Notes: generated by a model from the letters alone, not told the origin. 64,000 nucleotides of DNA from Alphaproteobacteria bacterium (GCA_965220745.1 CBDCQT010000013.1:32001-96000), one strand, 5' to 3'; positions 2,368 to 29,635 are shown, counted from the first letter of the stretch. Translations and numbers: made by a program.

Positions 2368-3222
2368 TCAGGCCGCCAGCGGGGCTAGAACCCGCCGGGC
2401 GAGGACCCCGGCGAGGTGCCGGCGCATCGCCGCATCCGCATTCAGGTCCTCCAACGGGTCGAGCTCCTCCTTGAGCGCATCGGCGAGCCGGTCGCCGAGG
2501 GCGTCCGACCAGCTCTCGCCTTCGAGCAGGGCCGCGCTCCGCACGGCGGAGACGGACCGCTCGCCCACCCCGAAGAAGACGAGGCTGCCCTGGCCGAACC
2601 TGCCGTCCTGCACCTCGACATGGGCGGCGAGTCCGATCATCGCGTAGTCGCCGTGCCGCCGCGCCAGCTCCATGAAGCCCGACCTCCAGCCCGCTCCGAT
2701 GCCCGGCACGTCGATTGCGGTCAGCACCTCGCCCGGCTCGAGGGCAGTCTCGTAGAGGCCCCGGAAGAACGCGTCCGCAGCCACGGTTCGGGTGCCGCCC
2801 TTGCCCGCAATCGTCATGCGTGCGCCGAGGGCAACCGCGCAGGCCGGGAGCTCGGCCGCCGGGTCGGCCAACGCGATGGAGCCGCCGAACGTGCCGCAAT
2901 TGCGCACCGCCGGATGGGCGATGTGCGGCATGGCGCTGGCGATGAGCGGCGCCTGGGAGGCGACGAGGTCCGAGGCTTCCACCTCCGCATGGCGGGTCAT
3001 GGCTCCGATCCGAAGCCCATCGTCGGTTTCCTCGATGCCCGCAAGGCCCGGCACGCGGCCGATATCGACCAGCACCTCCGGCGCGGAGAGCCGCATGTTG
3101 AGGGTGGCCATCAGGCTCTGGCCGCCTGCGAGAACTCTCGCGTCCTCCCCGTGCTCGTCCAGCAAGGCGATGGCATCTTCGAGTTTTTCCGGCCTGACAT
3201 AGGCGAATGGGGCAGGTTTCAT
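2368..3222 (-). CDS. FAD-binding medium subunit, CoxM family
   Basis: MKPAPFAY start, AGGQSL, RNCGTFGGS and ADPAAE motifs. Confidence 0.95.
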   Translation of the reverse strand: MKPAPFAYVRPEKLEDAIALLDEHGEDARVLAGGQSLMATLNMRLSAPEVLVDIGRVPGLAGIEETDDGLRIGAMTRHAEVEASDLVASQAPLIASAMPHIAHPAVRNCGTFGGSIALADPAAELPACAVALGARMTIAGKGGTRTVAADAFFRGLYETALEPGEVLTAIDVPGIGAGWRSGFMELARRHGDYAMIGLAAHVEVQDGRFGQGSLVFFGVGERSVSAVRSAALLEGESWSDALGDRLADALKEELDPLEDLNADAAMRRHLAGVLARRVLAPLAA

Positions 3223-3386
3223 GAGCGCGTTCCCCCGCTATTGCGCCGGATGAGCATCATCGGGATGTCGTTCGGCTCCACCGTATAGGGGATGGATGCG
3301 AGCGTACCGTGTTTGGTCCGGATGTCGAAGGGCCGGTCCCCCGTCGGGCAGTCGGCGGCATATTCGATGCCCGCCTCGGCAGTCAT
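3219..3386 (-). pseudogene. 55-codon internal fragment of a polysaccharide deacetylase/PuuE-like gene
   Basis: Translates MTAEAGIEYAADCPTGDRPFDIRTKHGTLASIPYTVEPNDIPMMLIRRNSGGTRS, resembling the family pattern AEAGxxY..D...DxP....(IV)PY..exND; stop overlaps the coxM-like ATG. Confidence 0.6.
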
Positions 3387-3414
3387 TACGACCTGATATT
3401 CGGGTGTGTGCGCT

Positions 3415-4344
3415 CTACGCGCCCCTGAGCCGCGGATCGAGCGCGTCGCGCAGGCCGTCGCCGATGTAGTTGACGCTCAGCACCGTGAGCGAGATCGCCA
3501 GTCCGGGCCAGAGTACACGCTCCGGCGTGACGGAAATGAAGTTGGCGCCGTCGAAGAGTAGCCGGCCCCAAGTCGGGAAGTCCGGCGGAAAGCCGAGTCC
3601 TAAGAACGAGAGCGCCGATTCCGTGATGATCGCGTTGGCGATGCCCAATGTCGCCGAGACCATGATCGGGCTCAGCACGTTGGGCAGGATGTGGCGGGTG
3701 ATGATGCGCCGCCGGCGCGTCCCGATGCTGCGCGCCGCGGTCACGAACTCGCGCTCCCGGAGCGCCAGCACGTCGCCCCGGACGATGCGCGCGGTCTGCA
3801 TCCAGCTCGTGATGCCGATGATGAACACCACCAGCAGGAAGATCCCGGTCTCCGGGCCGAAGGCGGCGCGCAGGCTGTCGCGGAACAGCATGATCACCAC
3901 CAGCAGCAGCGGCAGAAGCGGCAGCGCCAGGAACATGTCGGTGAGCCGCATCAGGAGGCCGTCGATCTGCCTGAAGTAGCCCGCGAGCACGCCCACCAGG
4001 GTGCCGAGCACCAGCGCGATCATCATGGCGGTGAAGCCGACGGCCAGCGAGATGCGCCCGCCCGCCAGCACCTGGGCCAGCGTGTCGCGGCCGAGGTTGT
4101 CGGTCCCCATCGGGTGCTTGAGGGAGGGGCCCTCGTTCTTTGCCAGGATGTCGAGATAGTGCGGGTCCACGGTGTGGATCAGCGGGCCGAGGGCGACCGC
4201 GAGCGCGATGGCGAGAAAGACTCCCGCGCCCACCAGCGCGCCCGTGTGGTTGCGGAAGGCGAGCCACACGTCCATCCAGAGCGACCGGTGTCGTTGCAAC
4301 CCGCGTGGGGGGGCGGTGAGGTCGGAAGATTGCGCAGCCGGCAT
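3415..4344 (-). CDS. Peptide/nickel ABC transporter permease (DppC/OppC family)
   Basis: HPMGTDNLGRD, EFVTAARSIG, ESALSFLGLG and PTWG motifs. Confidence 0.93.
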   Translation of the reverse strand: MPAAQSSDLTAPPRGLQRHRSLWMDVWLAFRNHTGALVGAGVFLAIALAVALGPLIHTVDPHYLDILAKNEGPSLKHPMGTDNLGRDTLAQVLAGGRISLAVGFTAMMIALVLGTLVGVLAGYFRQIDGLLMRLTDMFLALPLLPLLLVVIMLFRDSLRAAFGPETGIFLLVVFIIGITSWMQTARIVRGDVLALREREFVTAARSIGTRRRRIITRHILPNVLSPIMVSATLGIANAIITESALSFLGLGFPPDFPTWGRLLFDGANFISVTPERVLWPGLAISLTVLSVNYIGDGLRDALDPRLRGA

Positions 4345-4347
4345 CGT

Positions 4348-5361
4348 TCAGCCGTAGCGGATGCGCGGATCGAGGATGCCGTAGAGCACATCCGCGATCA
4401 GGTTGAAGATCACGATCAGCACCGCGAACAGGAAGGAGAGCGTCTGCACCAGGGGAATGTCAGCGCCCTGGATCGCGGTGATCAGCAGCTCGCCGATGCC
4501 GTTCACTCGAAAGATCTTCTCCGTGATGATGGCGCCGCCGAAGACGGTGGGGATGCCGAGCGCGATCAGCGTCACCACCGGGATCAGGCTGTTGCGCAGC
4601 ACGTGGATGAACAGAACGATCCGCTCGCGCAGGCCCTTGGCGCGGGCCGTGCGCACGTAGTCCTGCGTCAGGTTGTCCAGCACGGCGGCGCGCATGAAGC
4701 GGCTGATCTGGGCTGCGTTGAAGAGCGCGAGCACCATCACCGGCATTGCCATCTGCTTGATCTGCACCCAGAAGCTCGAGAGATCGGTCACCCGGTGCGT
4801 GGTGTCGTAGATCGACGGCAGCCATTGCAGGCTGACGCTGAATACGATGATCGCGAGCAGCCCGGTGAAGAACGTCGGCACCGAGAAGCCGATCATGGAG
4901 ACGAAGGTGCCCAGCTGGTCGAACCACGAATACTGCCGGTAGGCCGAGACGATGCCGATCGGGATCGCGATCAGGATGCCGATCAGGTAGGAGAGCCCGA
5001 CCACCCAGAGCGTCTGCGGCAGGCGCTCGATGATGAGGTCCACGACCGGGCTGCGTGTCGCCCACGAGCGCACCCGCAGGCGCTCCTCGGAAGCGCCGAT
5101 CTCCACGCCGAACGCCCGCTCGATGAGGTTGAGCGGCTCGTTGACGAAGAACTGCTCCATCCACTTGGCGTAGCGGATGTGGAAGGCTTCCCCGAGCCCG
5201 AGCGACTCGCGGATCTGCTCGCGCGCTTCCGCCGGGATGGTGAGCGGGAGCTGGCCGGTGGGGTCATTGGGCGCGAGGTCGAGGAGGGCGAAGAGGATGA
5301 AGCTGATTGCGATCAGCGTCGGCACTGCGAAGAGCAGGCGGCGAATGATGTAGTGGGTCAT
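4348..5361 (-). CDS. Peptide/nickel ABC transporter permease (DppB/OppB family)
   Basis: YIIRRLL start, DYVRTARAKGL, HVLRNSLIP and DPRIR end. Confidence 0.93.
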   Translation of the reverse strand: MTHYIIRRLLFAVPTLIAISFILFALLDLAPNDPTGQLPLTIPAEAREQIRESLGLGEAFHIRYAKWMEQFFVNEPLNLIERAFGVEIGASEERLRVRSWATRSPVVDLIIERLPQTLWVVGLSYLIGILIAIPIGIVSAYRQYSWFDQLGTFVSMIGFSVPTFFTGLLAIIVFSVSLQWLPSIYDTTHRVTDLSSFWVQIKQMAMPVMVLALFNAAQISRFMRAAVLDNLTQDYVRTARAKGLRERIVLFIHVLRNSLIPVVTLIALGIPTVFGGAIITEKIFRVNGIGELLITAIQGADIPLVQTLSFLFAVLIVIFNLIADVLYGILDPRIRYG

Positions 5362-7180: not shown

Positions 7181-8216
7181 GTCGCGGGCCTCCAGTTGGG
7201 AGGGGTGGGGCGCGCCTGAGCGCATACCCCGCATCATCTGCCATCATTCCGCCAGGTGACAAGCAACCTGGTGGCCGGGGCGGAGGGTGCGCCACTCCGG
7301 CGCTCTCTCGGAGCATTCCGCCACCGCCACCGGGCAGCGGGTGCTGAAGCGGCAGCCCGGCGGCGGCGCGGCCGGGCTCGGCACGTCGCCCTCCAGGATG
7401 ATGCGCTTCCGCGTGGCCTCGCGCTCGGGATCGTGCGTCGGCACCGCCGAGAGCAACGCACGCGTGTAGGGGTGCAGCGGCTCCTCGTAGAGCGCATCGC
7501 TGGTTGCCAGCTCGACGATCTTGCCGAGGTACATCACCGCCACCCGGTCGGCGACGTGGCGCACCATGCGCAGGTCGTGGGAAATGAAGAGGTAGGTAAG
7601 GCCGAGGCGCTCCTGAAGCTCCTTCAAGAGGTTCACCACCTGCGCCTGGATCGAGACGTCGAGCGCCGCGATCGGCTCGTCGCAGACGACGAACTCGGGG
7701 TTGAGCGCGAGCGCTCTTGCCACGCCGATGCGCTGGCGCTGTCCGCCGGAGAACTCGTGCGGGTAGCGGTTGGCAAACGCCGGGTCGAGGCCCACCGCGT
7801 CCAGTAACGCCTCCACGCGCTCCCTCAGCGCCGCGCCCGCCGCCACCCCGTGCTCGCGCAGCGGCTCGCCGACGATGCTGCCCACGGTCATGCGCGGGTT
7901 CAGGCTGTCCTGCGGGTCCTGGAAGATCATCTGCATGTGCGGGCGGAGCTGCCGCAGCGCCTCGCCCTGGAGCGCCGTGATGTCCTCGCCGCGAAACCTC
8001 ACCCGCCCGGCCGTCGGCGCGTAGAGGCGCAGGATCACCCGGCCGACGGTCGACTTGCCGCAGCCGCTCTCGCCCACCAGGCCCAGCGTCTCGCGCGGAT
8101 GGATCGCGAAGTCGAGACCGTCTACCGCCCGCACGCTGCCCACCTCGCGGCGCAGGACCCCGCGCAGGATCGGGAAGTGCTTGGTCAGGTTCTCGACCGC
8201 GACGAGGGGGCCAGGC

Positions 8217-9233
<1,017 letters not shown>

Positions 9234-9410
9234 CAGCAGGCCCTAAGCTGCGTCCTGGGCGGCGCTCGTCGATGGTCGGTTATCGATCAACCGTCGCGGC
9301 TCCTCGAACCTGCCCTGTCCCGGTGGCTGCGATCCTAACCGCCGCCCGATAGCCCGTGCTAGTCTCCCGCGCCGGATTCGGGCGCGGCGAGGACGGACGG
9401 CGGGGCGGAG

Positions 9411-10610
9411 ATGACGGGGCAGGGCAGGGAGCGGCTGGGCAGGGCCGACATCGTGGTGGTCGGCGCGGGAATCATGGGGGCGAGTATCGCCTTCCAGCTG
9501 ACGCGGCAATCCGGCCGTAAGGTCGTGGTGGTGGACGAGCGGCCACCCGTCGGCGGTATGTCGGGTCGCACCTTCGGGCAGATTCGCCAGCACTACTCCA
9601 ACGCGCTGATGGTCGAGATGGCGATCCGCGGTTTCGACGTGCTGAACAACTGGCAGGCTGAGGTCGGCGTCGGCGACCCCGGCTACGTCAGGCTCGGCTA
9701 CATGCTGCTGGTGGTCGAAGCGCAGGTGGAGGCCTGCCGGCGCAACGTCGAGCTCGGCCGCCAGCTCGGAGTCGATACCCGCTTCGCCAGCCCCGACGAG
9801 ATCAAGGCGCTGGAGCCCGCGCTCGTCACCGACGATCTCGCCGGCGGCGCCTGGGAGCCCAACGGCGGCTACATCGACGTGACCCGCATGGTGCTGAGCT
9901 GGCTCGGCGCAGCCCAGGCGGCGGGCGCGACGCTCCATTCCGGGCTCCGGGTGGAGCGGATCGCCACTGCAGACGGCCGCGTCGTGGGCGTGGACACCGC
10001 CGGGGGCCGCATCGAGGCGCCAACCGTGATCGCCGCGACCGGCGCGTGGATCACCGATCTGCTCGGGCCGCTCGGCATCGACGCGCCCATCGAGCGCCGC
10101 CGCCTCGACATGGCCTATCTGGAACAACCGCCGGGCCGGCCCACCATTCGCACCTGCATCACCGACGGCAACTCCAACGTCGTCATGCGTCCGGACATGG
10201 GGCCCTACCTGCTCGCGGTCGCCTATCCCAACGAGATGCCCGAGGTCGCCGATCCCACCGCGCCTGCGCCGGCGGAAGACGAGGCCCGCCATCGCACGCG
10301 GCTCGACAAGGCGCTCGCCGAGCGGCTGCCGGACTTCGTCGATGCCAGGGTCGTGCGCACGGTCTCCGGCGCCTACGACATCACGCCGGACTTTCATCCG
10401 ATCCTCGGTTGGGTGCCGGGGCTGGAGGGGCTCTATCTCGCCGCCGGCTTCTCGGGCCACGGGCTCAAGCTCTCGCCGGCGGTGGGCGAGTGCGTGGCCG
10501 CCGCCGTGCTGGGCGCGGACTCGCCCCTCGACATCCGCCCGCTGCGGCCCACGCGCTTTGCCGAGGGCGATCCCATGTACCTCGCCTACGGGCCGTCCGC
10601 GCGCGCCTGA
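9411..10610 (+). CDS. FAD-dependent oxidoreductase, DAO/sarcosine oxidase beta-like
   Basis: VVGAGIMG dinucleotide motif, TPDFHPILG, GFSGHGLK. Confidence 0.88.
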   Translation: MTGQGRERLGRADIVVVGAGIMGASIAFQLTRQSGRKVVVVDERPPVGGMSGRTFGQIRQHYSNALMVEMAIRGFDVLNNWQAEVGVGDPGYVRLGYMLLVVEAQVEACRRNVELGRQLGVDTRFASPDEIKALEPALVTDDLAGGAWEPNGGYIDVTRMVLSWLGAAQAAGATLHSGLRVERIATADGRVVGVDTAGGRIEAPTVIAATGAWITDLLGPLGIDAPIERRRLDMAYLEQPPGRPTIRTCITDGNSNVVMRPDMGPYLLAVAYPNEMPEVADPTAPAPAEDEARHRTRLDKALAERLPDFVDARVVRTVSGAYDITPDFHPILGWVPGLEGLYLAAGFSGHGLKLSPAVGECVAAAVLGADSPLDIRPLRPTRFAEGDPMYLAYGPSARA

Positions 10611-10686
10611 CGGCGATCTATACCGCCCAACTCAGGAATGGAATAATCCCCCCACGCCGCGCGCCGGACCGGACGAGGATCCCGCC

Positions 10687-11553
10687 ATGCCGACCCTGAC
10701 CGATGAGCAGCACCGCCAGTGGGCGGTCGATGGCTACATCCATCTGGAAGGCGCGTTGGCGCCGCAGGAGGTCTCGCTCTACTGCGGGTTGATCGATTCC
10801 CTGCGTCCGCAGGCGGGATGGGAGCCGCAACCGGGCCTGCCGTTCGGCCATTACGCTTGGGTGGAGCGCAACGCGACGGCGGACGATCTCGACTCCTTCA
10901 TGGACCGCCGGGATATCCTGGGCTACGCCGAGCCGTTCCGGGATCTCATCGACCGGCCCAACGTCTTCGACCCGATCCTCGAACTCATGGGCCCCTACAT
11001 CGTGCTCAGCATGTCGCAGGCCATCGTCCGCGCATCCACGACCGAGTTTCCCGGCTTCATCCACACGGACGGCGGGCAGGCGCTCCGGCAGATTCGCGTG
11101 ACCGAGACCAGCAGGCCGCTGGCGGTGAAGGCCCTCTACCTCCTCACCGATGTCGAGGGGACGGACAACGGCAATTTCACGGTCTTCCCCGGCAGCCATC
11201 TGCAGCAGATCCCGTTCGACAGCGACGCCGCCCCGACCCCCCACTCGCCGGGCGCCGTCCAGCTGGGCGGGAAGGCGGGCGATTGCTATCTGTTCAGCCA
11301 CTCGCTGTGGCATGGGCCCGCGCCGAACCGTTCCGGCAAGGGCCGCAAGACGCTGCTCTACAACTACGCGCAGATGTTCGTGAAGCCCTACGACTTCCCC
11401 ACCATCGCCGGCGCCATGGACAAATGCACGCCGCGTCAGCGCCGGCTCCTGGGCGACCTCGGACACGACCCGAGGCTGGGCGACTACTTCTACGTGCCCG
11501 AGGACCAGGAGGACGTCATGCTCCAGCGATCCGGAGCCCGGCAGGCAGCCTGA
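10687..11553 (+). CDS. Phytanoyl-CoA dioxygenase (PhyH) family Fe(II)/2-oxoglutarate oxygenase
   Basis: MPTLTDEQ...DGY start, HTD metal motif, PGSH, AGD..LF...LWH. Confidence 0.85.
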   Translation: MPTLTDEQHRQWAVDGYIHLEGALAPQEVSLYCGLIDSLRPQAGWEPQPGLPFGHYAWVERNATADDLDSFMDRRDILGYAEPFRDLIDRPNVFDPILELMGPYIVLSMSQAIVRASTTEFPGFIHTDGGQALRQIRVTETSRPLAVKALYLLTDVEGTDNGNFTVFPGSHLQQIPFDSDAAPTPHSPGAVQLGGKAGDCYLFSHSLWHGPAPNRSGKGRKTLLYNYAQMFVKPYDFPTIAGAMDKCTPRQRRLLGDLGHDPRLGDYFYVPEDQEDVMLQRSGARQAA

Positions 11554-22405: not shown

Positions 22406-24004
22406 CTAAGCCTTGTCGACGATGGTCGGCCAGGCTGCCTTGTTGCTCGCGCGGATGGCCTCGATCATCTTGTCCTCGCCCTTCTTCTTGATGATCTTCC
22501 GCCATTTCTTGGAGGCGTTCTTCATGGCCTCTTCGGGCGTGATGTCGCCGATCAGCGCACGCTGCAACTCCTCGTCCAGGCCGTTGTCGAATGCGGACTG
22601 GCCGGCGAAGTTGATCGTCGGTGCGGAGCGCTTGATGGTCTCCTGAATCACTTCCACGTGATCCTTGTGGTAGGTCTGCTGCACCAACGGATCGTCGAAG
22701 TTGGCCTTCTGGAACGGATCGAAGTAGCCGGCCGGATTGCCCGACATCCAGCTGAAGATGCGCGAGCAGCTTGCCCACTGGAGGAAGAGGTAGGCGGCCT
22801 CCGGATACTCGCTCTGCGCCGAGACCTCGGCATTAATGTTGAGGTAGAGCACGCTGCGGCGGATCAGGTCGTCTCCGAACCAGTTGCCCACCGGGAGGAA
22901 CGAGCCGAGCTTGCCCGACGCTGGCGTGGCGGGCGTTCCGTCGGCGTTCATCCGGTCGTTGAACTTCCGCAGGTTGGTATACGTGCTCATCATCACGCCG
23001 GTGCCTTGGGCCATGCTCCCGTAAGCCTCGGACCAAGTCCAGCTGAGCGCATCCTTGTTGGCCCACTGCCGGCTTCTCACGTGCTCCTCGGCGGTCTTGA
23101 TGCCGAGCTCCGTCTCGAGCAGCGGGTTTCCGTCGTCGTCGAAGTACTGGAAGTTGGGATTGTCCTGCCCCACGTAGCGCATGAAGTAGGTGCCCAGACC
23201 CCAGAACGGGCTGAACAGATTGACGGTCCCGTTCATGCCCTTCTCGAAGAAAAACTCGGCGATATTGTCAGCGTGCGCCCACGTCTGCGGCTTGCCCAGC
23301 TCCCAGCCGTAGCGGTCGCTGAACTCCTTCACGTTCTCGGGATCCTCGAACAGGTCCTTGCGGTAGACCCAAGTCTGGAAGTCCCCGTCGAAGGAAATCG
23401 TGTAATAGGAACCCGCATACTTGTAGAGAAGATCGGCGATCTCCGCAGTCGGCGCCCCGCGCTCGGGGTCGTTCCAGTCGGGCTTATACTGCTCGACGTA
23501 CGGGTCCAGATTGACGATGCCGCCGGTGGCGACGAGGTCGCCGACATTGCTCCAAAGCGCGGAGTAGATGTCGTAGACGCCGGCCTGGGTGGTGATGTCC
23601 TGGAGAACCTTGGTCACCATCTCCACTTCGCCAGAGCCGCTGAACTCGACCTCGATCCCGGTCTCTTCCTTCCAGACATCGTGGACAGTCGGCGCTCCCT
23701 CCGGGAAGGGCTTGGTGAACTGGCCGATCGCTCCCGAGAAGAGCAGGAAGCTCAACTTCTCAGGCGCCTTGCCCTCTGCCTTGAGCTTCTTGATGCCTTC
23801 GATGGCCCGCCCTTCGGGCATGTCCTCGTTGTACTGATAGCGCTCGGCCCCCGGGAAGCCCGTGGGGCCGCCGGTCATCCCAGGCGCCAAGCCCGCCGCC
23901 CGCGCGGGACGGATGTACTTGGGTGCGATGCCGATCGGCGAGGTGAGCACTAGGCCTGCGGCGCCGGTCTTCAGCGCCTGCCGTCGCGTGATCCTGATCC
24001 CCAT
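22406..24004 (-). CDS. Sugar-family ABC substrate-binding protein with Tat signal
   Basis: ITRRQALKTGAA twin-arginine signal, YRKDLF, ITPEEAM. Confidence 0.88.
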   Translation of the reverse strand: MGIRITRRQALKTGAAGLVLTSPIGIAPKYIRPARAAGLAPGMTGGPTGFPGAERYQYNEDMPEGRAIEGIKKLKAEGKAPEKLSFLLFSGAIGQFTKPFPEGAPTVHDVWKEETGIEVEFSGSGEVEMVTKVLQDITTQAGVYDIYSALWSNVGDLVATGGIVNLDPYVEQYKPDWNDPERGAPTAEIADLLYKYAGSYYTISFDGDFQTWVYRKDLFEDPENVKEFSDRYGWELGKPQTWAHADNIAEFFFEKGMNGTVNLFSPFWGLGTYFMRYVGQDNPNFQYFDDDGNPLLETELGIKTAEEHVRSRQWANKDALSWTWSEAYGSMAQGTGVMMSTYTNLRKFNDRMNADGTPATPASGKLGSFLPVGNWFGDDLIRRSVLYLNINAEVSAQSEYPEAAYLFLQWASCSRIFSWMSGNPAGYFDPFQKANFDDPLVQQTYHKDHVEVIQETIKRSAPTINFAGQSAFDNGLDEELQRALIGDITPEEAMKNASKKWRKIIKKKGEDKMIEAIRASNKAAWPTIVDKA

Positions 24005-24289
24005 TGAAGCCTCCCTTGCTCCTTCCGATTGAGCGGTCCGTGCCATCGAACCTGTTTGTCGCCGTGCCCTACTATATACCACGTGCGCGCGACGCCGTGC
24101 ATCCTCCAAGCGGCGCCGATATCGCCGCCTGTCGTCGTGCCAGCGGCCGCTGGGGCGCGACCGATGCTGGTAGCTCATGCCTGCCGATGGCGGTCTTCGA
24201 GCCAGATCGTTGGGCCTGTCGGACAGGCGATGCCGGAGGCATGATGGCGCTGAACAGCGACAATTGCCCCGAATCAACAACGCCCTGCG

Positions 24290-24988
24290 ATGAGCATTCG
24301 AGAGTCTGTCATTGCCGCCTTGCGCGCCGCCGCCGACCCGGCGAGAGCGCCGCAGCAACGGGCATACATGAAGTCCGACATGCCCTATTTCGGCTTGGGC
24401 GTGCCGCAATGCCGACGCATTGCCAGTGCCGTTTTCAGAGCGCACCCGCTACCCGACGCCCGCGCCTGGGAAGCGGCGATTCTCGAGCTCTGGCGCAACG
24501 CCGCCCACCGCGAGGAGCGCTACGCGGCGGTCGAGCTGCTGCTCTTCGGGCGCTATTCGCGCTGGCTGGAGCCGGTGAGAGTTCCGTTGATCGAGGAGTT
24601 GGTGGTCACCGGCGCCTGGTGGGACTACGTGGACGCGATTGCCGGCCGTGGCGTCGGGACCATGCTCGCCGCCCATCCCCGCCCGATGAAGGCCGTGCTG
24701 CGCGAATGGGCGAAGGACGACAACATCTGGAAGCGGCGGACCGCGATACTCGCCCAGCTCCGGGCCAAGCGGGCAACGGACACGAAGCTGCTGGCCGACG
24801 CGATTCGGCCGTCCATCGGCGCCTCGGAGTTCTTCCTGCGCAAGGGCATCGGCTGGGCGTTGCGCGAGTACTCCAAAACCGATCCGGCCTGGGTGCGCGC
24901 CTTCGTCAAAGCTCATCCCGAACTTTCGGACCTGAGCCGGCGCGAGGCGCTCAAGCACCTGGAGCGCACGAAAGCGGCCAATCGTTAG
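24290..24988 (+). CDS. DNA alkylation repair protein (AlkD-like)
   Basis: AYMKS, WWDYVD, NIWKRR, EFFLRKGIGWALREYSK. Confidence 0.92.
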   Translation: MSIRESVIAALRAAADPARAPQQRAYMKSDMPYFGLGVPQCRRIASAVFRAHPLPDARAWEAAILELWRNAAHREERYAAVELLLFGRYSRWLEPVRVPLIEELVVTGAWWDYVDAIAGRGVGTMLAAHPRPMKAVLREWAKDDNIWKRRTAILAQLRAKRATDTKLLADAIRPSIGASEFFLRKGIGWALREYSKTDPAWVRAFVKAHPELSDLSRREALKHLERTKAANR

Positions 24989-25028: not shown

Positions 25029-25082
25029 TTGACGATTTGAGTCCCGAAGAGTAGAGTAAGCGCATAGATGCTTATGCGTTTA
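25029..25082 (+). promoter_or_regulatory. sigma70 promoter and inverted-repeat operator of the RHH-PIN operon
   Basis: TTGACG-N17-TAGAGT (25029-25057); inverted repeat TAAGCGCATA-N6-TATGCGTTTA (25057-25082). Confidence 0.65.
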
Positions 25083-25099
25083 TGCGCGGGAGCGTGACC

Positions 25100-25336
25100 A
25101 TGACCCGATGGAATCTCTCCATCTCGGAGGAGACAGACCGGACGGTTCGCATGTTTCTTGCCCGCAACGGCGGCAAGAAGGGCGATCTATCCCGATTCGT
25201 CGACGACGCTGTGCGCCGCCGCGTTTTCGATCTCACCGTCAGTCAGGTCAAGGAGCGTAATGCCGGATTGGACCAACGGGAGATTCTCAGCGTGATCGAC
25301 GATGAGGTAAGCGCGGCGCGTGCGGGTCGTTCTTGA
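25100..25336 (+). CDS. Ribbon-helix-helix protein, putative antitoxin
   Basis: RWNLSISEETD...GGKKGDLSRFVDDAV; overlaps the PIN gene. Confidence 0.85.
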   Translation: MTRWNLSISEETDRTVRMFLARNGGKKGDLSRFVDDAVRRRVFDLTVSQVKERNAGLDQREILSVIDDEVSAARAGRS

Positions 25337-25748
25337 CACCAACATCTTGATCGGCGCCCTGATCACCAAGGGCACGCCACCGGACAGCTTGTATCAGGCA
25401 TGGCTTCGCGGGGAGATCGAACTTGTGACATCCGCCGCGCAGATCCGCGAGCTGGCCGATGTCCTCGCCAGAGAGCGTCTCCAAAAGTTTCTCGACGCCG
25501 ATGAGGCTGCGGCCATAGTCGAGAACATCGGTACCCGCGCTGTCATCCTCGATGAGCTCCCAAGCGTGTCTCACTCTCCCGATCCCATGGATAACCAGAT
25601 CATGGCGACCGCTATCGCTGGAGGCGTCGACCTGATCGTCTCCGGAGACAAGAAGCACATGCTCGCGCTCCGGGAGGTCGATGGCATTCCCATTGTGACC
25701 GCTCGCAAAGCTCTGGAGCTGCTGCGTCAAGGCCAGGGCAGCACGTGA
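25320..25748 (+). CDS. PIN-domain putative toxin
   Basis: MRVVLDTNIL, DPMDN and IVSGD acidic motifs. Confidence 0.9.
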   Translation: MRVVLDTNILIGALITKGTPPDSLYQAWLRGEIELVTSAAQIRELADVLARERLQKFLDADEAAAIVENIGTRAVILDELPSVSHSPDPMDNQIMATAIAGGVDLIVSGDKKHMLALREVDGIPIVTARKALELLRQGQGST

Positions 25749-25769
25749 TCGCCACACTTCGCGATCAGA

Positions 25770-27017
25770 TCACGAGCGGGCCGAGTCCGCGCCGATGTGA
25801 GTGGCCAAATGGTCGGTGAGATCGCGGGCATCGTCGGCGGTGCCGTGAATGAAGCTCGACTTGCGGCGGCGCAGGAAGTTGAGGCCGATGCGGTAGACGC
25901 CCGGCGCCTCCGTCACCACGCCGCCGTCATGGCGCAGCCGGCCCTTGCGGTCGAAGACCGGAAGATCGACCCAGGAGTGATCGGGCTCGTATCCGGTCGC
26001 CCAGATCACCGTCCGTATCCCTTCGCGGGCGAGATCGAGGGTGAGCGGCGGCGAGTCCTCCACCCGCGTCGGCTCGAAGCGATGCGGCGGCTCGAATTCC
26101 TCGTCGAGCCCGTTCTCGTCGACCCACTCGTCGATGGTGTCGAGCAGCCGGCCCTGCTTCAGGTCTGCCAGGTTGCACTTGTTGGGGAGCGAGCCCGAGA
26201 ACTGCGCCTTGCCGTCCGAGAACCCGGCCAGCAGGCCCACCAGGCGCACCCCCTGATCGGTGAGGTCGTTGAGATTGAGCGTGGAGCGCTCCGGCGTGCC
26301 CACGAGCTGCGGTGAGGGCACCCGGCGCGCGCGCACGATGTCGTCCACCTCGTCGTAGCGCTCGTCGTGCAGCCCGGTGCGATCCATCCACCACAGGATG
26401 TCCTTGCCGCGATAGGTGCGCGGCATGCGCACGTGCTCGCCCACCGCGATCGTCACGGGGCGGCCCGAGCGGTGCACCTCGTCCGCAATCTGGACACCGG
26501 TGGCGGACGCGCCGACCACCAGCACGCCGCCCTCCGGCAAGTCCGAGGGCCGCGTGTAGTCCATCGGCGTCACGGACTCGATGGTGCTGGGGAGCGCCGC
26601 CCCGACGGCCGGAATCTTCGGCACGTTGAAGCCGCCGGAGGCGAGCACCGCGCATGCGCAGCGCCAGACGCCCCGGTCGGTCGCTACCTCGTAGCCGTCG
26701 CCGTTCTTGGTCAGGGATTCGACGGTGGTGCCGGTCTCGAGCGGCGGGTCCACGAGCCGGGCGTAGCGTTCGATGAACGCCACCACCTCGGCCATGGTCA
26801 TGAAGCCGTCGGGATCGTCGCCGTCGTAGGCGAGGCCGGGCACGTGCGTCTGCCAGTTGGGCGTCAGCAGGCGGAGAGACTCCCAGCGCTCCGTCCGCCA
26901 CGTGTGAGCCACCTCGCCGCGCTCGATCACCACGTGATCGATGCCGCGCGCGGCGAGGCAATGGCTCACGGCGAGGCCGGCATGACCGGCCCCTACCACG
27001 ACGGTCGTCGTGTACAC
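25770..27017 (-). CDS. FAD/NAD(P)-dependent oxidoreductase, flavin monooxygenase-like
   Basis: VVGAGHAG, W...RWESL.LLTPNW, second Rossmann motif VVGASATG, IWATGY; GTG start assumed. Confidence 0.88.
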   Translation of the reverse strand: MYTTTVVVGAGHAGLAVSHCLAARGIDHVVIERGEVAHTWRTERWESLRLLTPNWQTHVPGLAYDGDDPDGFMTMAEVVAFIERYARLVDPPLETGTTVESLTKNGDGYEVATDRGVWRCACAVLASGGFNVPKIPAVGAALPSTIESVTPMDYTRPSDLPEGGVLVVGASATGVQIADEVHRSGRPVTIAVGEHVRMPRTYRGKDILWWMDRTGLHDERYDEVDDIVRARRVPSPQLVGTPERSTLNLNDLTDQGVRLVGLLAGFSDGKAQFSGSLPNKCNLADLKQGRLLDTIDEWVDENGLDEEFEPPHRFEPTRVEDSPPLTLDLAREGIRTVIWATGYEPDHSWVDLPVFDRKGRLRHDGGVVTEAPGVYRIGLNFLRRRKSSFIHGTADDARDLTDHLATHIGADSARS

Positions 27018-27102
27018 GGCGTCGCTAGAGCACGTTCCGAGCGTGCGGGATCGGCCCTGGTTGCCGAGCGGCGCCTGTCGCACATGCATTGCCGCTCGAA
27101 AA

Positions 27103-27213
27103 CCCCCACCTCACCCCGGCCCTCTCCGCCCCCAGGGGCGGAGAGGGAGAAGAGGCGGCGCCGCTTGCGTCCCCCCTCCGCCCTTTGGGGGGAGGGGGAC
27201 AGGGGGAGGTGGG
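27103..27213. repeat. REP/MITE-like palindromic element, copy 1
   Basis: Terminal IR CCCACCTC/GAGGTGGG around two GC hairpins, e.g. CCCTCTCCGCCCC-CA-GGGGCGGAGAGGG; homologous to 57115-57208. Confidence 0.75.
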
Positions 27214-27255
27214 AGCCGTTCGGGCCGCGGTAATCCGGTACGGTCGCATCATGCT

Positions 27256-27819
27256 CTAGTTCACCTCGACGGTGACGTTGGTCGGGTTGGTCAGGATATC
27301 GTAGACCGCCGAGCGCTTCTGAGACTGGGCGACCAGCGCCGCGATCTCGTCGGGTGTGGCGTCGGCGTCGATATCGTAGGTGACCTTGACATTGTTGAAC
27401 CCGTTCCGGATTTCGGGATCGGCGCCCAGGATTCCCGCGATGTCCATGTCGCCTTCGACCGTGGCCTTGACCGAGCGAAGCTGGATCTCCCGCACCTGTG
27501 CCACCGCGGCGACGCCGGCGGTCAGGCAGCTCGCCAGACCCGTGAGCACGATCTCCACCGGCGTGGCCGCGTTGTCCTCCGCCGCGAACACCAGGGGATG
27601 ATCGGACTCGAACGAGTAGCTCGCCTTGTGGTCGTTCTCCTGGCCGAGGCCGAAATAGCCCTCCACCCGTGTCTTGCTGTGCGTGCCGTGGAGCCACTCG
27701 TTGGTGACGCGCCACGTGAACTGGCCGGCTTCGGGCTGGTCGCCCAGGATATTGCGGGCACCGAGCAGGTGCTCGACGTTGACGCCGTTAAGGCCGGGAG
27801 TTTCGCTGCTGTCGGACAT
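27256..27819 (-). CDS. OsmC/Ohr-like protein with a single Cys
   Basis: NGVNV, DHP..F...D...TPVE.VL.GLASCL, EGDMD..GILG; RBS AAGGAG. Confidence 0.88.
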   Translation of the reverse strand: MSDSSETPGLNGVNVEHLLGARNILGDQPEAGQFTWRVTNEWLHGTHSKTRVEGYFGLGQENDHKASYSFESDHPLVFAAEDNAATPVEIVLTGLASCLTAGVAAVAQVREIQLRSVKATVEGDMDIAGILGADPEIRNGFNNVKVTYDIDADATPDEIAALVAQSQKRSAVYDILTNPTNVTVEVN

Positions 27820-27946
27820 GGATCTTCTCCTTGTGGGCATGGTTGTCGGGCTGTGACTCCGCCCCGGTCGGTGGCGATGCCAGAGGCCTGGAGGACCGCG
27901 CGGTCTCCATCGCTCTCACCCGGTGGGATCGGCTACGAGCGGTAGC

Positions 27947-28012
27947 CTAGGTACAGACGCGGCAGGACGCGGCCCCCGGAGGGGCGAATGGCTGGGCGCA
28001 CAGAGTCATCAT
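27947..28012 (-). CDS. Putative Met/Cys-rich leader peptide (21 aa, MMTLCAQPFAPPGAASCRVCT)
   Basis: SD GAGAGGAG 9 nt before tandem ATGs; lies between the riboswitch and osmC. Confidence 0.45.
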   Translation of the reverse strand: MMTLCAQPFAPPGAASCRVCT

Positions 28013-28079
28013 CTGGCGGTACTCCTCTCGTCTCCTACGCGCTCTACGAGCGCCGAGAGCGGAGCTCCGCCTCCGGCTA

Positions 28080-28160
28080 ACTCATCGATCAGGCATTGGC
28101 ACCGCTCTTGGCGGTTGCCGCGGCTTCGAAGGGCCTGTCCCTCCACCGCTCTGGATGAGC
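28080..28160 (-). ncRNA. SAM-I (S-box)-type riboswitch aptamer lacking P4
   Basis: Minus strand CTCATC-CAGAG-CGGTGGAGGGACAGGCCCTTCGAAGCCG-CGGCAACC-GCCAAGAGC-GGTGCCAAT-GCCTG-ATC-GATGAG: P1, AGA J1/2, kink-turn P2, GCAACC/GGTGC P3, and L2 CAGG pairing with CCTG. Confidence 0.85.
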
Positions 28161-28175
28161 GCGTCCTGTGCGCGC

Positions 28176-28204
28176 ATGAAACACAAACCGGTGGGCGTGG
28201 TCAA
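28176..28204 (-). promoter_or_regulatory. Putative sigma70 promoter of the riboswitch leader
   Basis: TTGACC-N17-TTTCAT with an extended TG, ending about 15 nt before P1. Confidence 0.55.
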
Positions 28205-28244
28205 CAAAATGTCGCGGCCTCGACGAGCCGACGCGCAGGCCGTC

Positions 28245-29450
28245 TCAGGCCCCGGCCTTGGCCACCGCGTGTTGTGGCGCGCCGCCACTGCTCGGCAGCC
28301 AGAAGGCGATGATGGCGACCAGCGCCGCCGAGCCGCCGAGTCCGACGAAGAGCCAGAGGAAGCCGCCGGAAACACCGTGGAGGCCCGCGACCAGCGGCGC
28401 CGCCACCGCGCTCGCGCCGAGGCCGAGCAAGAACTTCACGCCGAAGATCCGCGCCCGCCAGCTCTCCTTCGTGTAACGCGTGACCAGCGCGTCCTGGATC
28501 GGAATCTCGCCCACCACCACCATCATCATCGCGAGCGCCACGATGATCAGGCCGTGGCCAGCGAGCACACCGGCAGCGGCGATCAGCGGCGCCTGGGCGA
28601 ACAGCACCGCGATCCAGACTGGCTTCGCCGGGTAGCGGTCGATCAGCCAGCCGACCCCGATCTGGGCGAAGGCGGCGATGGCGATGACGACCGAGACCAG
28701 CCCGCCGACTCCGAGGGCACTGTCGGTGATCCCGGTGAGCCCTTCGTCGAACAGCTTGGGGAGCGCGATGGTCGTGGTCTGGAACGTGAGTCCCGTGAGC
28801 GTCGTCGCGATGCCGATCACCAGCACCAGCCGCAGCAGCGTGCCCGAGGGCTGGCCGCCCCACCCCCGGCCCAGGGAGGGTCGGGAGGAGGTCTCCTCGC
28901 TGTTGCGCCACTGGCGGCAGACCGCGATGAACCAGAGCCCGATGACCAGCGAGACCGCGCCCGGCACGATGAATGCCGCACGCCAACTGATCGCATCGCT
29001 CAGCGACGCGGCCACGATCGCCGCCGCCGCGAGCCCGAAGTTCCCGGCGACTCCGTTGATCCCGAGCAGCTTGCCGACCTTCTCCCGCCCCTCCACCAGC
29101 ATGGCGATGCCGACCGGGTGATAGATCGAGGCGAAGAGGCCGATCAGCGTGAGCCCGACCGCAAGCTCGAACGGCGTGCGCGCGAAGCCGGTGAGGATGG
29201 ACGCGGCCCCGATGCCGACGAAGAAGATCGCGAGCATCGCGGGCCTGCTCCACCGGTCCCCCAACCAGCCGGCCGGCAGCGTGCCCGCGGCGAAGGCGAT
29301 GAAGCCGGGCACGGCGAGCGAGAGCAGCTCGCCGTAGGAGCGGTCGAACACCCCTTCGAGGGTGAGCACCACCGTCGGGTAGAGCAGCAGGAACAGGTGG
29401 TCGAGCCCGTGCCCGACGTTGATGAAGAGTATGCGGGAGCGGTCCGACAT
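28245..29450 (-). CDS. MFS transporter
   Basis: GWLGDRWSR motif A, YHPVG, about 12 hydrophobic segments. Confidence 0.92.
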   Translation of the reverse strand: MSDRSRILFINVGHGLDHLFLLLYPTVVLTLEGVFDRSYGELLSLAVPGFIAFAAGTLPAGWLGDRWSRPAMLAIFFVGIGAASILTGFARTPFELAVGLTLIGLFASIYHPVGIAMLVEGREKVGKLLGINGVAGNFGLAAAAIVAASLSDAISWRAAFIVPGAVSLVIGLWFIAVCRQWRNSEETSSRPSLGRGWGGQPSGTLLRLVLVIGIATTLTGLTFQTTTIALPKLFDEGLTGITDSALGVGGLVSVVIAIAAFAQIGVGWLIDRYPAKPVWIAVLFAQAPLIAAAGVLAGHGLIIVALAMMMVVVGEIPIQDALVTRYTKESWRARIFGVKFLLGLGASAVAAPLVAGLHGVSGGFLWLFVGLGGSAALVAIIAFWLPSSGGAPQHAVAKAGA

Positions 29451-29561: not shown

Positions 29562-29635
29562 TGGAGCGGGTGAAGGGAATCGAACCCTCGTCGTAAGCTT
29601 GGGAAGCTTCTGCTCTACCATTGAGCTACACCCGC
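29562..29635 (-). tRNA. tRNA-Gly (anticodon CCC)
   Basis: GCGGGTGTAGCTCAATGGTAGAGCAGAAGCTTCCCAAGCTTACGACGAGGGTTCGATTCCCTTCACCCGCTCCA: cloverleaf, TTCGA T-loop, encoded CCA. Confidence 0.97.

Follow-up and report, generated by a model that had tools for sequence, protein, structure and literature searches.

The stretch of DNA analysed in this study, hereafter the window, comprises 64,000 nucleotides (C13:32001-96000) of an alphaproteobacterial genome (G000) of 4.82 Mb that is 99.96% complete. On the minus strand of the window, a class I S-adenosylmethionine (SAM) riboswitch (SAM-I, or S-box) precedes a gene for an OsmC-fold protein and a gene for a flavoprotein expected to use flavin adenine dinucleotide (FAD) and NAD(P)H (Table 1). 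The pair is uncharacterised and is among the most conserved units without assigned chemistry that could be traced here; full-text literature searches, the coverage of which excludes most subscription journals and supplements, returned no account of the OsmC–flavoprotein pair or of its SAM-I control. Our firm conclusion is that the two genes encode a two-subunit enzyme composed of an OsmC-fold Cys protein and a flavoprotein resembling flavin-containing monooxygenases (FMOs) and YpdA, and that in a mobile subset of carriers its genes stand behind a SAM-I leader, which points to SAM control. The chemistry of the pair is what we infer from the comparisons below.

Table 1. Features of the riboswitch–OsmC–flavoprotein locus, with positions counted from the first nucleotide of the window
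Feature	Position	Strand	Remarks
Major facilitator superfamily (MFS) transporter gene	28245-29450	-	Upstream of the aptamer
SAM-I (S-box) riboswitch aptamer	28079..28161	-	Rfam RF00162, 68.9 bits against a gathering score of 44.4; full model 1-108
Leader and expression platform, 259 nt	27820..28078	-	Conserved hairpins, GAGCGCG and Shine–Dalgarno (SD)-like GAGAGGAG
Short upstream open reading frame (uORF) MMTLCAQPFAPPGAASCRVCT	27947..28012	-	Starts 68 nt past aptamer GATGAG and about 8 nt past SD-like GAGAGGAG
OsmC-fold protein, 187 aa (P0001)	27256..27819	-	AAGGAG ahead of ATG 27819; Pfam OsmC PF02566
Dispersed palindromic repeat	about 27095..27250	no strand	46 genome-wide matches; between the OsmC and flavoprotein genes
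Out-of-frame open reading frame (ORF), 75 aa	27025-27252	-	Left by the repeat insertion; opened by GAGGTGA...ATGATGCGA
FAD/NAD(P)H flavoprotein, 415 aa	25770..27017	-	From GTG 27017; frame open back to ATG 27089

Materials and methods

Relatives of the OsmC-like protein were collected by a scan of one genome per species, which yielded 407, and the best 80 of these 407 loci were kept for the locus counts. The carriers of these 80 loci belong to Alpha-, Beta- and Gammaproteobacteria, Acidimicrobiia, Thermoleophilia, Gemmatimonadota, Acidobacteriota, Nitrospiraceae, Akkermansiaceae and Amycolatopsis; one of them is the named strain Amycolatopsis acididurans K13G38 (L078). Cys conservation and motifs were compared over 81 sequences for both the OsmC-like protein and the flavoprotein, and a second alignment set contained 43 rows. 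The riboswitch counts over the 80 loci include two (L002 and L033) that could not be judged, with less than 280 nt of upstream sequence. Fusion proteins were tallied from a table of 111 longer relatives of the OsmC-like protein. Occurrence within the class was assessed in a sample of 401 Alphaproteobacteria; the tallies take in one unpublished genome (G240), on which no claim rests. A SAM-I model of our own (R1) was also utilised, which recovered two positive controls and is narrow, so that divergent aptamers could escape it. Complexes were predicted from two OsmC copies, FAD and the flavoprotein partner, with their own 43-row alignments. Of 80 solved complexes, 58 attained the mark applied to the interaction prediction score from aligned errors (ipSAE), compared with 2 of 110 mismatched pairs. 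Sulfur contents of proteins were expressed as percentiles against 3347 crudely called ORFs of the host.

Results

The OsmC-fold subunit

As translated, the OsmC-like protein contains exactly one cysteine, Cys98, in the motif GLASCL, and reads QKRSAVYD at the usual site of the second Cys, as an earlier note on this DNA had described. The match to PF02566 scores 63.7 bits against a cut-off of 27.5 and places residues 88-192 on model positions 2-100, and the score for NF041052 (OsmC-related (seleno)protein) is 60.2 bits, below its cut-off of 95. In the alignments, Cys98 is matched to the Cys in Ohr 6mjn (AGYAACF) and to that in Thermotoga maritima OsmC 1vla (LMGC), and HMMER places Ser170 on the second Cys of 1vla (EKyCSV). 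The TPVE motif aligns with NPEQ/RPLE, its Glu lying on the Glu of the NPEQ of Ohr. Cys98 is invariant (81/81 homologues), and QSQKRSAV is invariant in both the 43- and the 81-sequence sets. Judged from these alignments, the protein is a PF02566 member with a Cys at the peroxidatic position and a P-x-E motif and without a resolving Cys, and the lack of the resolving Cys is common to the family. Identities of 67-95% were obtained across phyla among the best 80 loci, and orthologues of at least 61% identity were found in 13 of the 401 sampled Alphaproteobacteria, separated by a clear gap from the next matches at 45% and 37%.

The protein shares the family match, the peroxidatic Cys and the TPVE/NPEQ Glu with the OsmC/Ohr enzymes (Escherichia coli OsmC, Xylella and Pseudomonas Ohr; PF02566), but differs from them by the Ser in place of the resolving Cys, which holds in all 81 sequences, and by about 40 additional residues at the N-terminus. 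Its matches to solved OsmC/Ohr chains are weak (E 0.13-0.57), and its partner is a dedicated flavoprotein rather than a lipoyl protein, which is the electron donor of Ohr. The only informative solved relative is PDB 2OPL, a 187-aa structural-genomics 'hypothetical protein' with no function assigned; it is homologous over the full length (E 1.3e-37, residues 5-184 on 3-182), though with only moderate identity, and shares the single Cys (LSGCLT) and the Ser at the second position (KYSPVY). The earlier note had taken the single Cys to mean that the protein is not a classical peroxidase. The absence of a resolving Cys extends to the whole family and to 2OPL, but the step to 'not a peroxidase' is unsupported, as the Cys stands at the peroxidatic position and the Glu is placed as in NPEQ.

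The flavoprotein subunit

The flavoprotein matches Pfam Pyr_redox_3 (79.4 bits) and Pyr_redox_2 and contains two dinucleotide-binding motifs, GAGHAG and GASATG, which are conserved among homologues, in agreement with the co-oriented FAD/NAD(P)H flavoprotein with two Rossmann motifs of the earlier note. TIGR04046 (MSMEG_0569 family) is the best family match (E 2.1e-106) and covers the protein nearly in full, residues 29-427 lying on model positions 3-399 of 400, yet the score of 356.3 bits is below the cut-off of 498.35, so the flavoprotein belongs to a sister family. Genes of the MSMEG_0569 family presumably belong to a cluster of seven genes, with no OsmC gene adjacent.

Type II FMOs of the PDB match the N-terminal 200 residues with E values of 3e-15 to 3e-11. 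In the AlphaFold2 model (mean predicted local distance difference test, pLDDT, 81), an inserted, largely helical region occupies roughly residues 195-330. The top Foldseek matches of this model were the type II FMOs 4C5O, 4USR, 4USQ and 4A9W (E 7e-21 to 4e-20; template modelling score 0.61-0.78), followed by DiatB and YpdA (7A76, rank 12, E 2e-17) and then by classical FMOs and Baeyer-Villiger enzymes. The two-dinucleotide-binding-domain fold is thus shared with type II FMOs (SMFMO 4A9W/4C5O, 4USQ, 4USR) and YpdA/Bdr 7A76, but identity to them is 12-20%, and the extra insertion of roughly 70-130 residues, the predicted OsmC interface, sets the flavoprotein apart.

FMOs are identified by the motif FxGxxxHxxxY/F. 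This motif was not found in the flavoprotein, whose sequence ahead of the second GxGxxG is tp..Y..P..l..GgvLVVGASA; this stretch retains the Tyr but not the His that is present in type II FMOs (HSAHY). YpdA and Bdr contain a conserved Cys within the FAD glycine motif. The corresponding motif is GAGHAG in the window and GAGHCG in L013, L021 and L078, so a Cys at this site is not conserved, and the TIGR04018 (YpdA) model gave 38.7 bits against a cut-off of 339.9. Across the 81 homologues, neither an invariant Cys nor a CxxC or CxxxxC redox centre was detected in the flavoprotein, the best-kept Cys being Cys281 in 76 (94%).

Linkage and predicted complex of the two subunits

The flavoprotein gene lies directly after the OsmC gene on the same strand in all 80 related loci, which shows that the arrangement is not due to chance. 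Fused forms also occur: about 29 OsmC–flavoprotein fusions were counted among the longer relatives, mostly as single sequences, so some may represent gene-calling read-through. In the fusion P0125, OsmC occupies residues 83-186 and Pyr_redox_3 begins at residue 210.

The complex model reached an ipSAE of 0.85 (0.84-0.86 over three runs) versus 0.00 for the best control, and the runs agreed in at least 92% of contacts, with a partner pLDDT of at least 91. The predicted interface joins OsmC residues 157-184, namely the C-terminal helix and strand that hold the Ser replacing the resolving Cys, with flavoprotein residues 229-357. The flavoprotein side is the inserted region and includes an invariant S-G-x-L loop beside Cys281; the interface residues are mostly invariant or nearly so. 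The model supports, but does not prove, binding of the flavoprotein to an OsmC dimer, with the inserted domain placed on the helix that normally bears the resolving Cys. The two proteins are probably an obligate and physically bound pair, and both the neighbourhood survey and the complex model favour the partnership that the earlier note had proposed.

SAM-I riboswitch and leader

The SAM control proposed for the pair in the earlier note is supported by the RF00162 match in the window, the only one in the whole genome and with the same score when the genome is searched entire, and by co-oriented SAM-I aptamers ahead of the pair in 24 of the 80 loci (7/17, 9/18, 8/19, 0/20 and 0/6 by batch). 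These aptamers have 92% identity by column and occur in Alphaproteobacteria, Gammaproteobacteria and Acidimicrobiia/Actinomycetota; the other 56 loci are without the riboswitch, and no other SAM riboswitch class was found upstream of the pair in the 80 loci at Rfam gathering scores. The tree of the concatenated proteins cuts across taxonomy. The riboswitch loci fall mostly in one part of this tree, with L041 elsewhere, and the riboswitch-rich part also encloses a riboswitch-less clade of Acidimicrobiales. The host uses another class for its own methionine gene: a SAM-II aptamer (71.5 bits, C13:632188-632266) lies directly before a gene for a Cys/Met enzyme dependent on pyridoxal phosphate (PLP) at 632333-633475. 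Because the aptamers are near-identical in Proteobacteria and Actinomycetota and the met gene of the host itself is preceded by SAM-II, we read the riboswitch and the pair as a cassette that appears to have moved between phyla.

About 85 nt past the aptamer are conserved in the alignments, including an invariant GAGCGCG and the SD-like GAGAGGAG. A possible pairing partner of GAGCGCG is the ACGCGCUC run, which is located at the aptamer 5' end and immediately 5' of it, and in the minimum free energy fold the 5' ACGCGCUC is paired with a downstream GAGCGCGU. No U-tract terminator-like site or promoter was found in 25700-28300, a scan that is uninformative for a GC-rich alphaproteobacterium. The distance from the aptamer to the OsmC start is 139-380 nt with no other gene between, and an ATG stands 56-74 nt past the aptamer in all 25 leaders; in L041 this ATG opens no ORF (one codon). 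The leader control is probably translational and perhaps passed on to the pair by coupling or Rho.

The differences at uORF codons 4-6 (Leu-Cys-Ala/Ser) among the groups of the window, L003, L005, L006-L011 and L017 are mostly confined to the third position (CTG/CTC/CTA/CTT, TGC/TGT and GCC/GCA; L011 has TCC for Ser), which suggests that the uORF is translated. The peptide is not conserved across all groups. A Cys-rich leader peptide was also considered and rejected, Cys making up 3.3% in the uORF frames versus 5.0% in the other two frames. The aptamer and leader are covered by RNA-library contigs of three studies; two contigs, X16 record 5 (27729-27933) and X18 record 19 (27776-27926), continue into the OsmC coding sequence. 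Such contigs show neither strand nor true transcription and therefore give weak support for a leader–OsmC transcript. Among the listed contigs, none crosses the repeat to link the OsmC gene with that of the flavoprotein, and coverage is missing from several bins in each gene, which proves nothing either way.

Repeat insertion and surroundings in the window

The palindromic repeat between the two genes is similar to miniature inverted-repeat transposable elements or repetitive extragenic palindromes (fold energy -146 kcal/mol, z -5.5, a stem followed by UUUU) and is not part of the module in other genomes. It lies just past the ancestral SD and start of the flavoprotein and leaves a spacer of about 238 nt, compared with 7-40 nt in most relatives and 8 nt in the closest one (L002). 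As the ancestral SD and start now open the 75-aa out-of-frame ORF, the flavoprotein must begin at ATG 27089 or GTG 27017; on the evidence of homology, the native start is near GTG 27017 and not at ATG 27089. The displaced start means that co-expression of the two proteins may be weakened in this genome.

A pair of genes with ribbon-helix-helix (RHH_6) and PIN domains at 25082-25748 (+), likely a toxin–antitoxin system, converges on the 3' end of the flavoprotein gene. Also on the plus strand are a DNA alkylation repair enzyme gene (PF08713, 24290-24988) and an Rfam match to the Ruegeria small RNA Cis90 (82.2 bits, 22672-22872), which is antisense within a long ORF (22406-24445, -). A tRNA gene (29565-29635, -) lies upstream of the MFS transporter gene.

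Neighbouring genes, P450 and methyltransferase contexts

When the 324 ORFs flanking the 80 loci were clustered, the largest cluster covered 8 loci and 143 ORFs remained singletons. Pfam searches on 35 cluster representatives and 59 singletons revealed no recurring sulfur, transport or regulator gene. Redox-type neighbours were occasional: a catalase (L018), an AhpD-like CMD protein (L011), a MarR regulator (L009), a glutathione S-transferase (L003) and a glutaredoxin-like protein (L035). Other flanks contain a group II intron domain match (L040, 2219-2443, -) and a cyclic di-AMP riboswitch (L067, 7113-7254, +).

Among the longer relatives, 36 clusters of P450–OsmC fusions (one with 143 member sequences) and 8 clusters of UbiE-like methyltransferase–OsmC fusions (one with 71 members) were found. 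The flavoprotein is encoded directly downstream in all 15 P450 loci that hold an OsmC domain. The P450 is CYP107-like and resembles PikC, Vdh and TamI, and some loci encode it separately, immediately upstream. Genes for UbiE-like methyltransferases adjoin the unit on its upstream side in L162, L163 and L180, whereas those of L178, L215 and L070 are downstream, and a CMAS/sterol-methyltransferase-like gene lies directly upstream in one cluster of four loci. The fused methyltransferase resembles the MddH family through UbiE/COG2226, a likeness at family level only; the UbiE family includes the thiol methyltransferase MddH (PMC11445057). With model R1, no SAM-I match below E 0.08 was detected in 87 sources comprising P450, methyltransferase and riboswitch-less Acidimicrobiia loci.

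Several loci of this kind have further genes. In Actinomycetota, a gene for an HD_5 and LuxR-type regulator precedes the P450–OsmC–flavoprotein unit in L082, L083, L085 and L094 (about 2650-4530), and in L090 a BTAD/AAA_16/NACHT (SARP-like) regulator gene follows the unit (8138-11215). A second OsmC-like domain of 28-30% identity often stands before the UbiE-like methyltransferase (L163 4477-4995, L171, L180, L198), giving the order OsmC–methyltransferase–OsmC–flavoprotein.

Other OsmC-type genes behind SAM riboswitches

A distant family of long OsmC-like proteins with two Cys (27% identity) is encoded behind SAM-II in G030, a 1.4-Mb alphaproteobacterium. There (L218 3859-5768), a SAM-II aptamer of 37.6 bits, just above the cut-off, is followed by the two-Cys OsmC-like gene and directly next by an O-succinylhomoserine sulfhydrylase gene. 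Peptide patterns detected no close relatives of the G030 protein in genome contigs, and a class-wide search was used instead; in the 18 genomes with the long family, SAM-II was upstream in two (the second being L225), and a Cys/Met PLP enzyme gene adjoined in four.

A precedent is the osmC gene of Candidatus Pelagibacter ubique (SAR11_1172), in the order bhmT-osmC-ordL, which is likewise an OsmC-family gene behind a SAM riboswitch and beside a flavin oxidoreductase gene (PMC5069961, PMC2704228). It differs in that the riboswitch belongs to the SAM-V class and the flavoprotein neighbour is annotated OrdL; the comparison made here is at the level of gene context. In PMC5069961, this osmC is the most induced transcript at sulfur limitation (50-fold). 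OsmC-type proteins recur in SAM regulons of three riboswitch classes, namely SAM-I, SAM-II and SAM-V.

Sulfur status of the host and sulfur economy of the pair

PF01507 (CysH/CysD) gave no match in the host genome, and NIR_SIR was represented only by a fragment of 35 bits, indicating that the host probably cannot assimilate sulfate and relies on reduced sulfur. The genomes of its closest relatives L003, L004 and L005 are likewise without strong sulfate-assimilation matches. A link of the pair to loss of sulfate assimilation was rejected, as PF01507 is present in 10 of the 13 alphaproteobacterial carriers versus 237 of 401 overall; a link of the riboswitch to such loss was rejected as well, since among the genomes reached through the loci strong PF01507 matches occur in 10 of 24 riboswitch carriers and in 13 of 26 genomes lacking it. 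The sulfur content of the OsmC-like protein, which has one Cys and one internal Met, lies at the 2.7th percentile of the host ORFs, and that of the flavoprotein at the 17.6th.

Discussion

We tentatively favour, at somewhat less than an even chance, a two-subunit Cys–flavin enzyme induced by low SAM, in which NAD(P)H recycles the OsmC Cys and which most likely acts as a hydroperoxide reductase. Low SAM would lead to production of the pair, the unit being horizontally mobile. Cys98 would react with an oxidised substrate, for which a hydroperoxide of organic or lipid nature is the likeliest candidate, and would be converted to a sulfenate; the flavoprotein with NAD(P)H would return the sulfenate to the thiol, possibly through Cys281. 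The resulting peroxide reductase would require no glutathione, thioredoxin or lipoyl donor and would cost the cell little sulfur, and would thus be suited to methionine or sulfur starvation or to oxidative damage to methionine synthesis. At high SAM, binding would close P1, the platform would hide the SD of the short leader ORF, and expression of the pair would drop through lost coupling or Rho.

This reading draws on the placement of Cys and Glu as in Ohr, on a flavoprotein without a redox Cys of its own that is predicted to dock where the resolving Cys is missing, on the sulfur-poor composition of both proteins, and on low SAM as a plausible report of sulfur shortage or of oxidative damage to methionine synthesis, MetE being oxidation-sensitive. 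It is also in line with the constant pairing and the fused forms of the two genes, the YpdA-like fold, the occasional redox-type neighbours and the induction of Pelagibacter osmC at sulfur limitation. NADH peroxidase and CoA-disulfide reductase provide a precedent, as in these enzymes the sulfenate or mixed disulfide of one Cys is reduced by FAD and NAD(P)H without a CxxC. Their Cys belongs to the flavoprotein itself, whereas here it is proposed to come from a separate OsmC-fold subunit.

Several points weigh against a hydroperoxide reductase of this kind. To our knowledge, every characterised OsmC/Ohr enzyme uses two Cys, and the catalytic Arg of OsmC/Ohr could not be placed from the sequence of the OsmC-like protein. 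FMO-like enzymes are usually oxygenases rather than reductases. Cys98 is not among the contacts listed for the complex model, and Cys281 is absent in 5 of the 81 homologues. With 56 of the 80 loci devoid of the riboswitch, induction by low SAM is not universal, and the redox-type neighbours are single cases. A peroxidase role also leaves the P450 or UbiE-like methyltransferase upstream of or fused to OsmC unexplained. In the window itself, the repeat has moved the native start of the flavoprotein, so that translational coupling may be impaired.

The earlier note had suggested that the OsmC-like protein may be a sulfur/persulfide or methylthio carrier for the flavoenzyme, which would mobilise sulfur from an organosulfur compound. 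In a fuller form of this idea, the flavoprotein would be a true monooxygenase acting on a thioether, thiol or persulfide by S-oxygenation or dealkylation, and the OsmC Cys would carry or trap the sulfur species as a persulfide, methyl disulfide or sulfenate, thereby supplying sulfur for methionine at low SAM. On balance we consider this less probable than the hydroperoxide reductase. The closest solved relatives of the flavoprotein are S- and N-oxygenating and Baeyer-Villiger FMOs, the leader ahead of the pair is a SAM-sensing switch of the OFF type, and a host without PF01507 probably depends on reduced sulfur. The long OsmC-like paralogue of G030 behind SAM-II and before O-succinylhomoserine sulfhydrylase, with a Cys/Met PLP enzyme adjoining in 4 of 18 loci of its family, points in the same direction, as do the methyltransferases fused to or beside the OsmC domain, which are of the family to which PMC11445057 assigns MddH. 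That last likeness, however, is at family level only, and the methyltransferase and P450 loci are without SAM-I. S-oxygenation alone would yield no assimilable sulfur, and the 80 loci contain no conserved transporter, C-S lyase, desulfurase, sulfatase or sulfhydrylase neighbour, the Cys/Met PLP gene appearing only in L074 and divergently transcribed. Sulfate assimilation is also missing no more often in carriers than overall (PF01507 in 10/13 versus 237/401). The idea of a persulfide or methylthio carrier is without backing from gene context.

A broader proposal combines several of these elements. In a split flavoenzyme, the OsmC subunit would lend its sole Cys, as a sulfenate or persulfide, to an FMO-like active site. 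Production of this enzyme would be the sole task of a transferable SAM-I leader that also encodes a leader peptide, and bacteria that, like the host, are unable to reduce sulfate would use it to recover sulfur or methionine from oxidised or methylated sulfur compounds. Other lineages would have combined the same core with a P450 or a thiol methyltransferase placed in front of it. We regard this proposal as unlikely in its entirety.

Reductive salvage is more doubtful still. Here, Cys98 would attack free methionine sulfoxide, dimethyl sulfoxide or a disulfide such as homocystine or dimethyl disulfide, and the flavoprotein with NAD(P)H would regenerate the thiol, the products being methionine, homocysteine or methanethiol. 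The Cys–flavin relay would be the same as in the hydroperoxide reductase, the fold resembles that of the disulfide reductase YpdA, and induction by low SAM suits a reaction giving methionine or its precursors in a host without CysH/CysD. Against this stand the lack of homology to MsrA, MsrB or fRMsr and neighbourhoods without a link to met genes, and we know of no OsmC-fold sulfoxide or disulfide reductase. Both sulfur mobilisation and reductive salvage fit the regulation equally well as a peroxidase does, without support from gene context.

The P450 and methyltransferase contexts, which none of the readings above accounts for, raise the further possibility, to which we give little credence, that a hydrophobic molecule such as a quinone, sterol or terpenoid is bound or tethered by the OsmC domain and modified by the flavoprotein, P450 and methyltransferase, SAM control mirroring the SAM-dependent step. 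The 36 P450–OsmC and 8 methyltransferase–OsmC fusion clusters, the flavoprotein downstream in all 15 OsmC-holding P450 loci, the methyltransferases directly upstream in L162, L163, L180 and the four-locus CMAS/sterol-methyltransferase-like cluster, and the likeness of the P450 to PikC, Vdh and TamI would all be accommodated. In most loci, however, the pair stands alone among unrelated neighbours, and the 67-95% identity between members from different phyla speaks for a single fixed function. With a switch of the OFF type, plentiful SAM would shut down a SAM-using pathway, the reverse of what would be expected, and the riboswitch never occurs together with a P450 or methyltransferase in the searched loci. 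It is highly improbable that the riboswitch governs only the short leader ORF or is a relic, with the pair being ordinary stress genes without a tie to SAM: the 139-380 nt to the OsmC start, the separate SD and ATG about 70 nt downstream of the aptamer, the lack of a terminator and the 56 of 80 loci without riboswitch would fit, but 25 loci of Proteobacteria and Actinomycetota preserve the order and strand of aptamer, platform and pair, no gene lies between leader and pair, and RNA-library contigs run from the leader into the OsmC coding sequence.

The occurrence of osmC in SAM regulons has been a puzzle since Pelagibacter, in which osmC is the top response to sulfur limitation. The present pair offers a compact two-protein system, testable in vitro, for why OsmC-type genes occupy SAM-riboswitch regulons. 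The locus would also illustrate how a riboswitch can pass from one phylum to another together with its cargo. Here it would have entered a host whose own met gene is preceded by a SAM riboswitch of a different class, so that one genome contains two SAM riboswitch classes with different cargo. If the proposed Cys–flavin relay is true, it would add a reductase partner free of thiol cofactors to the OsmC/Ohr field.

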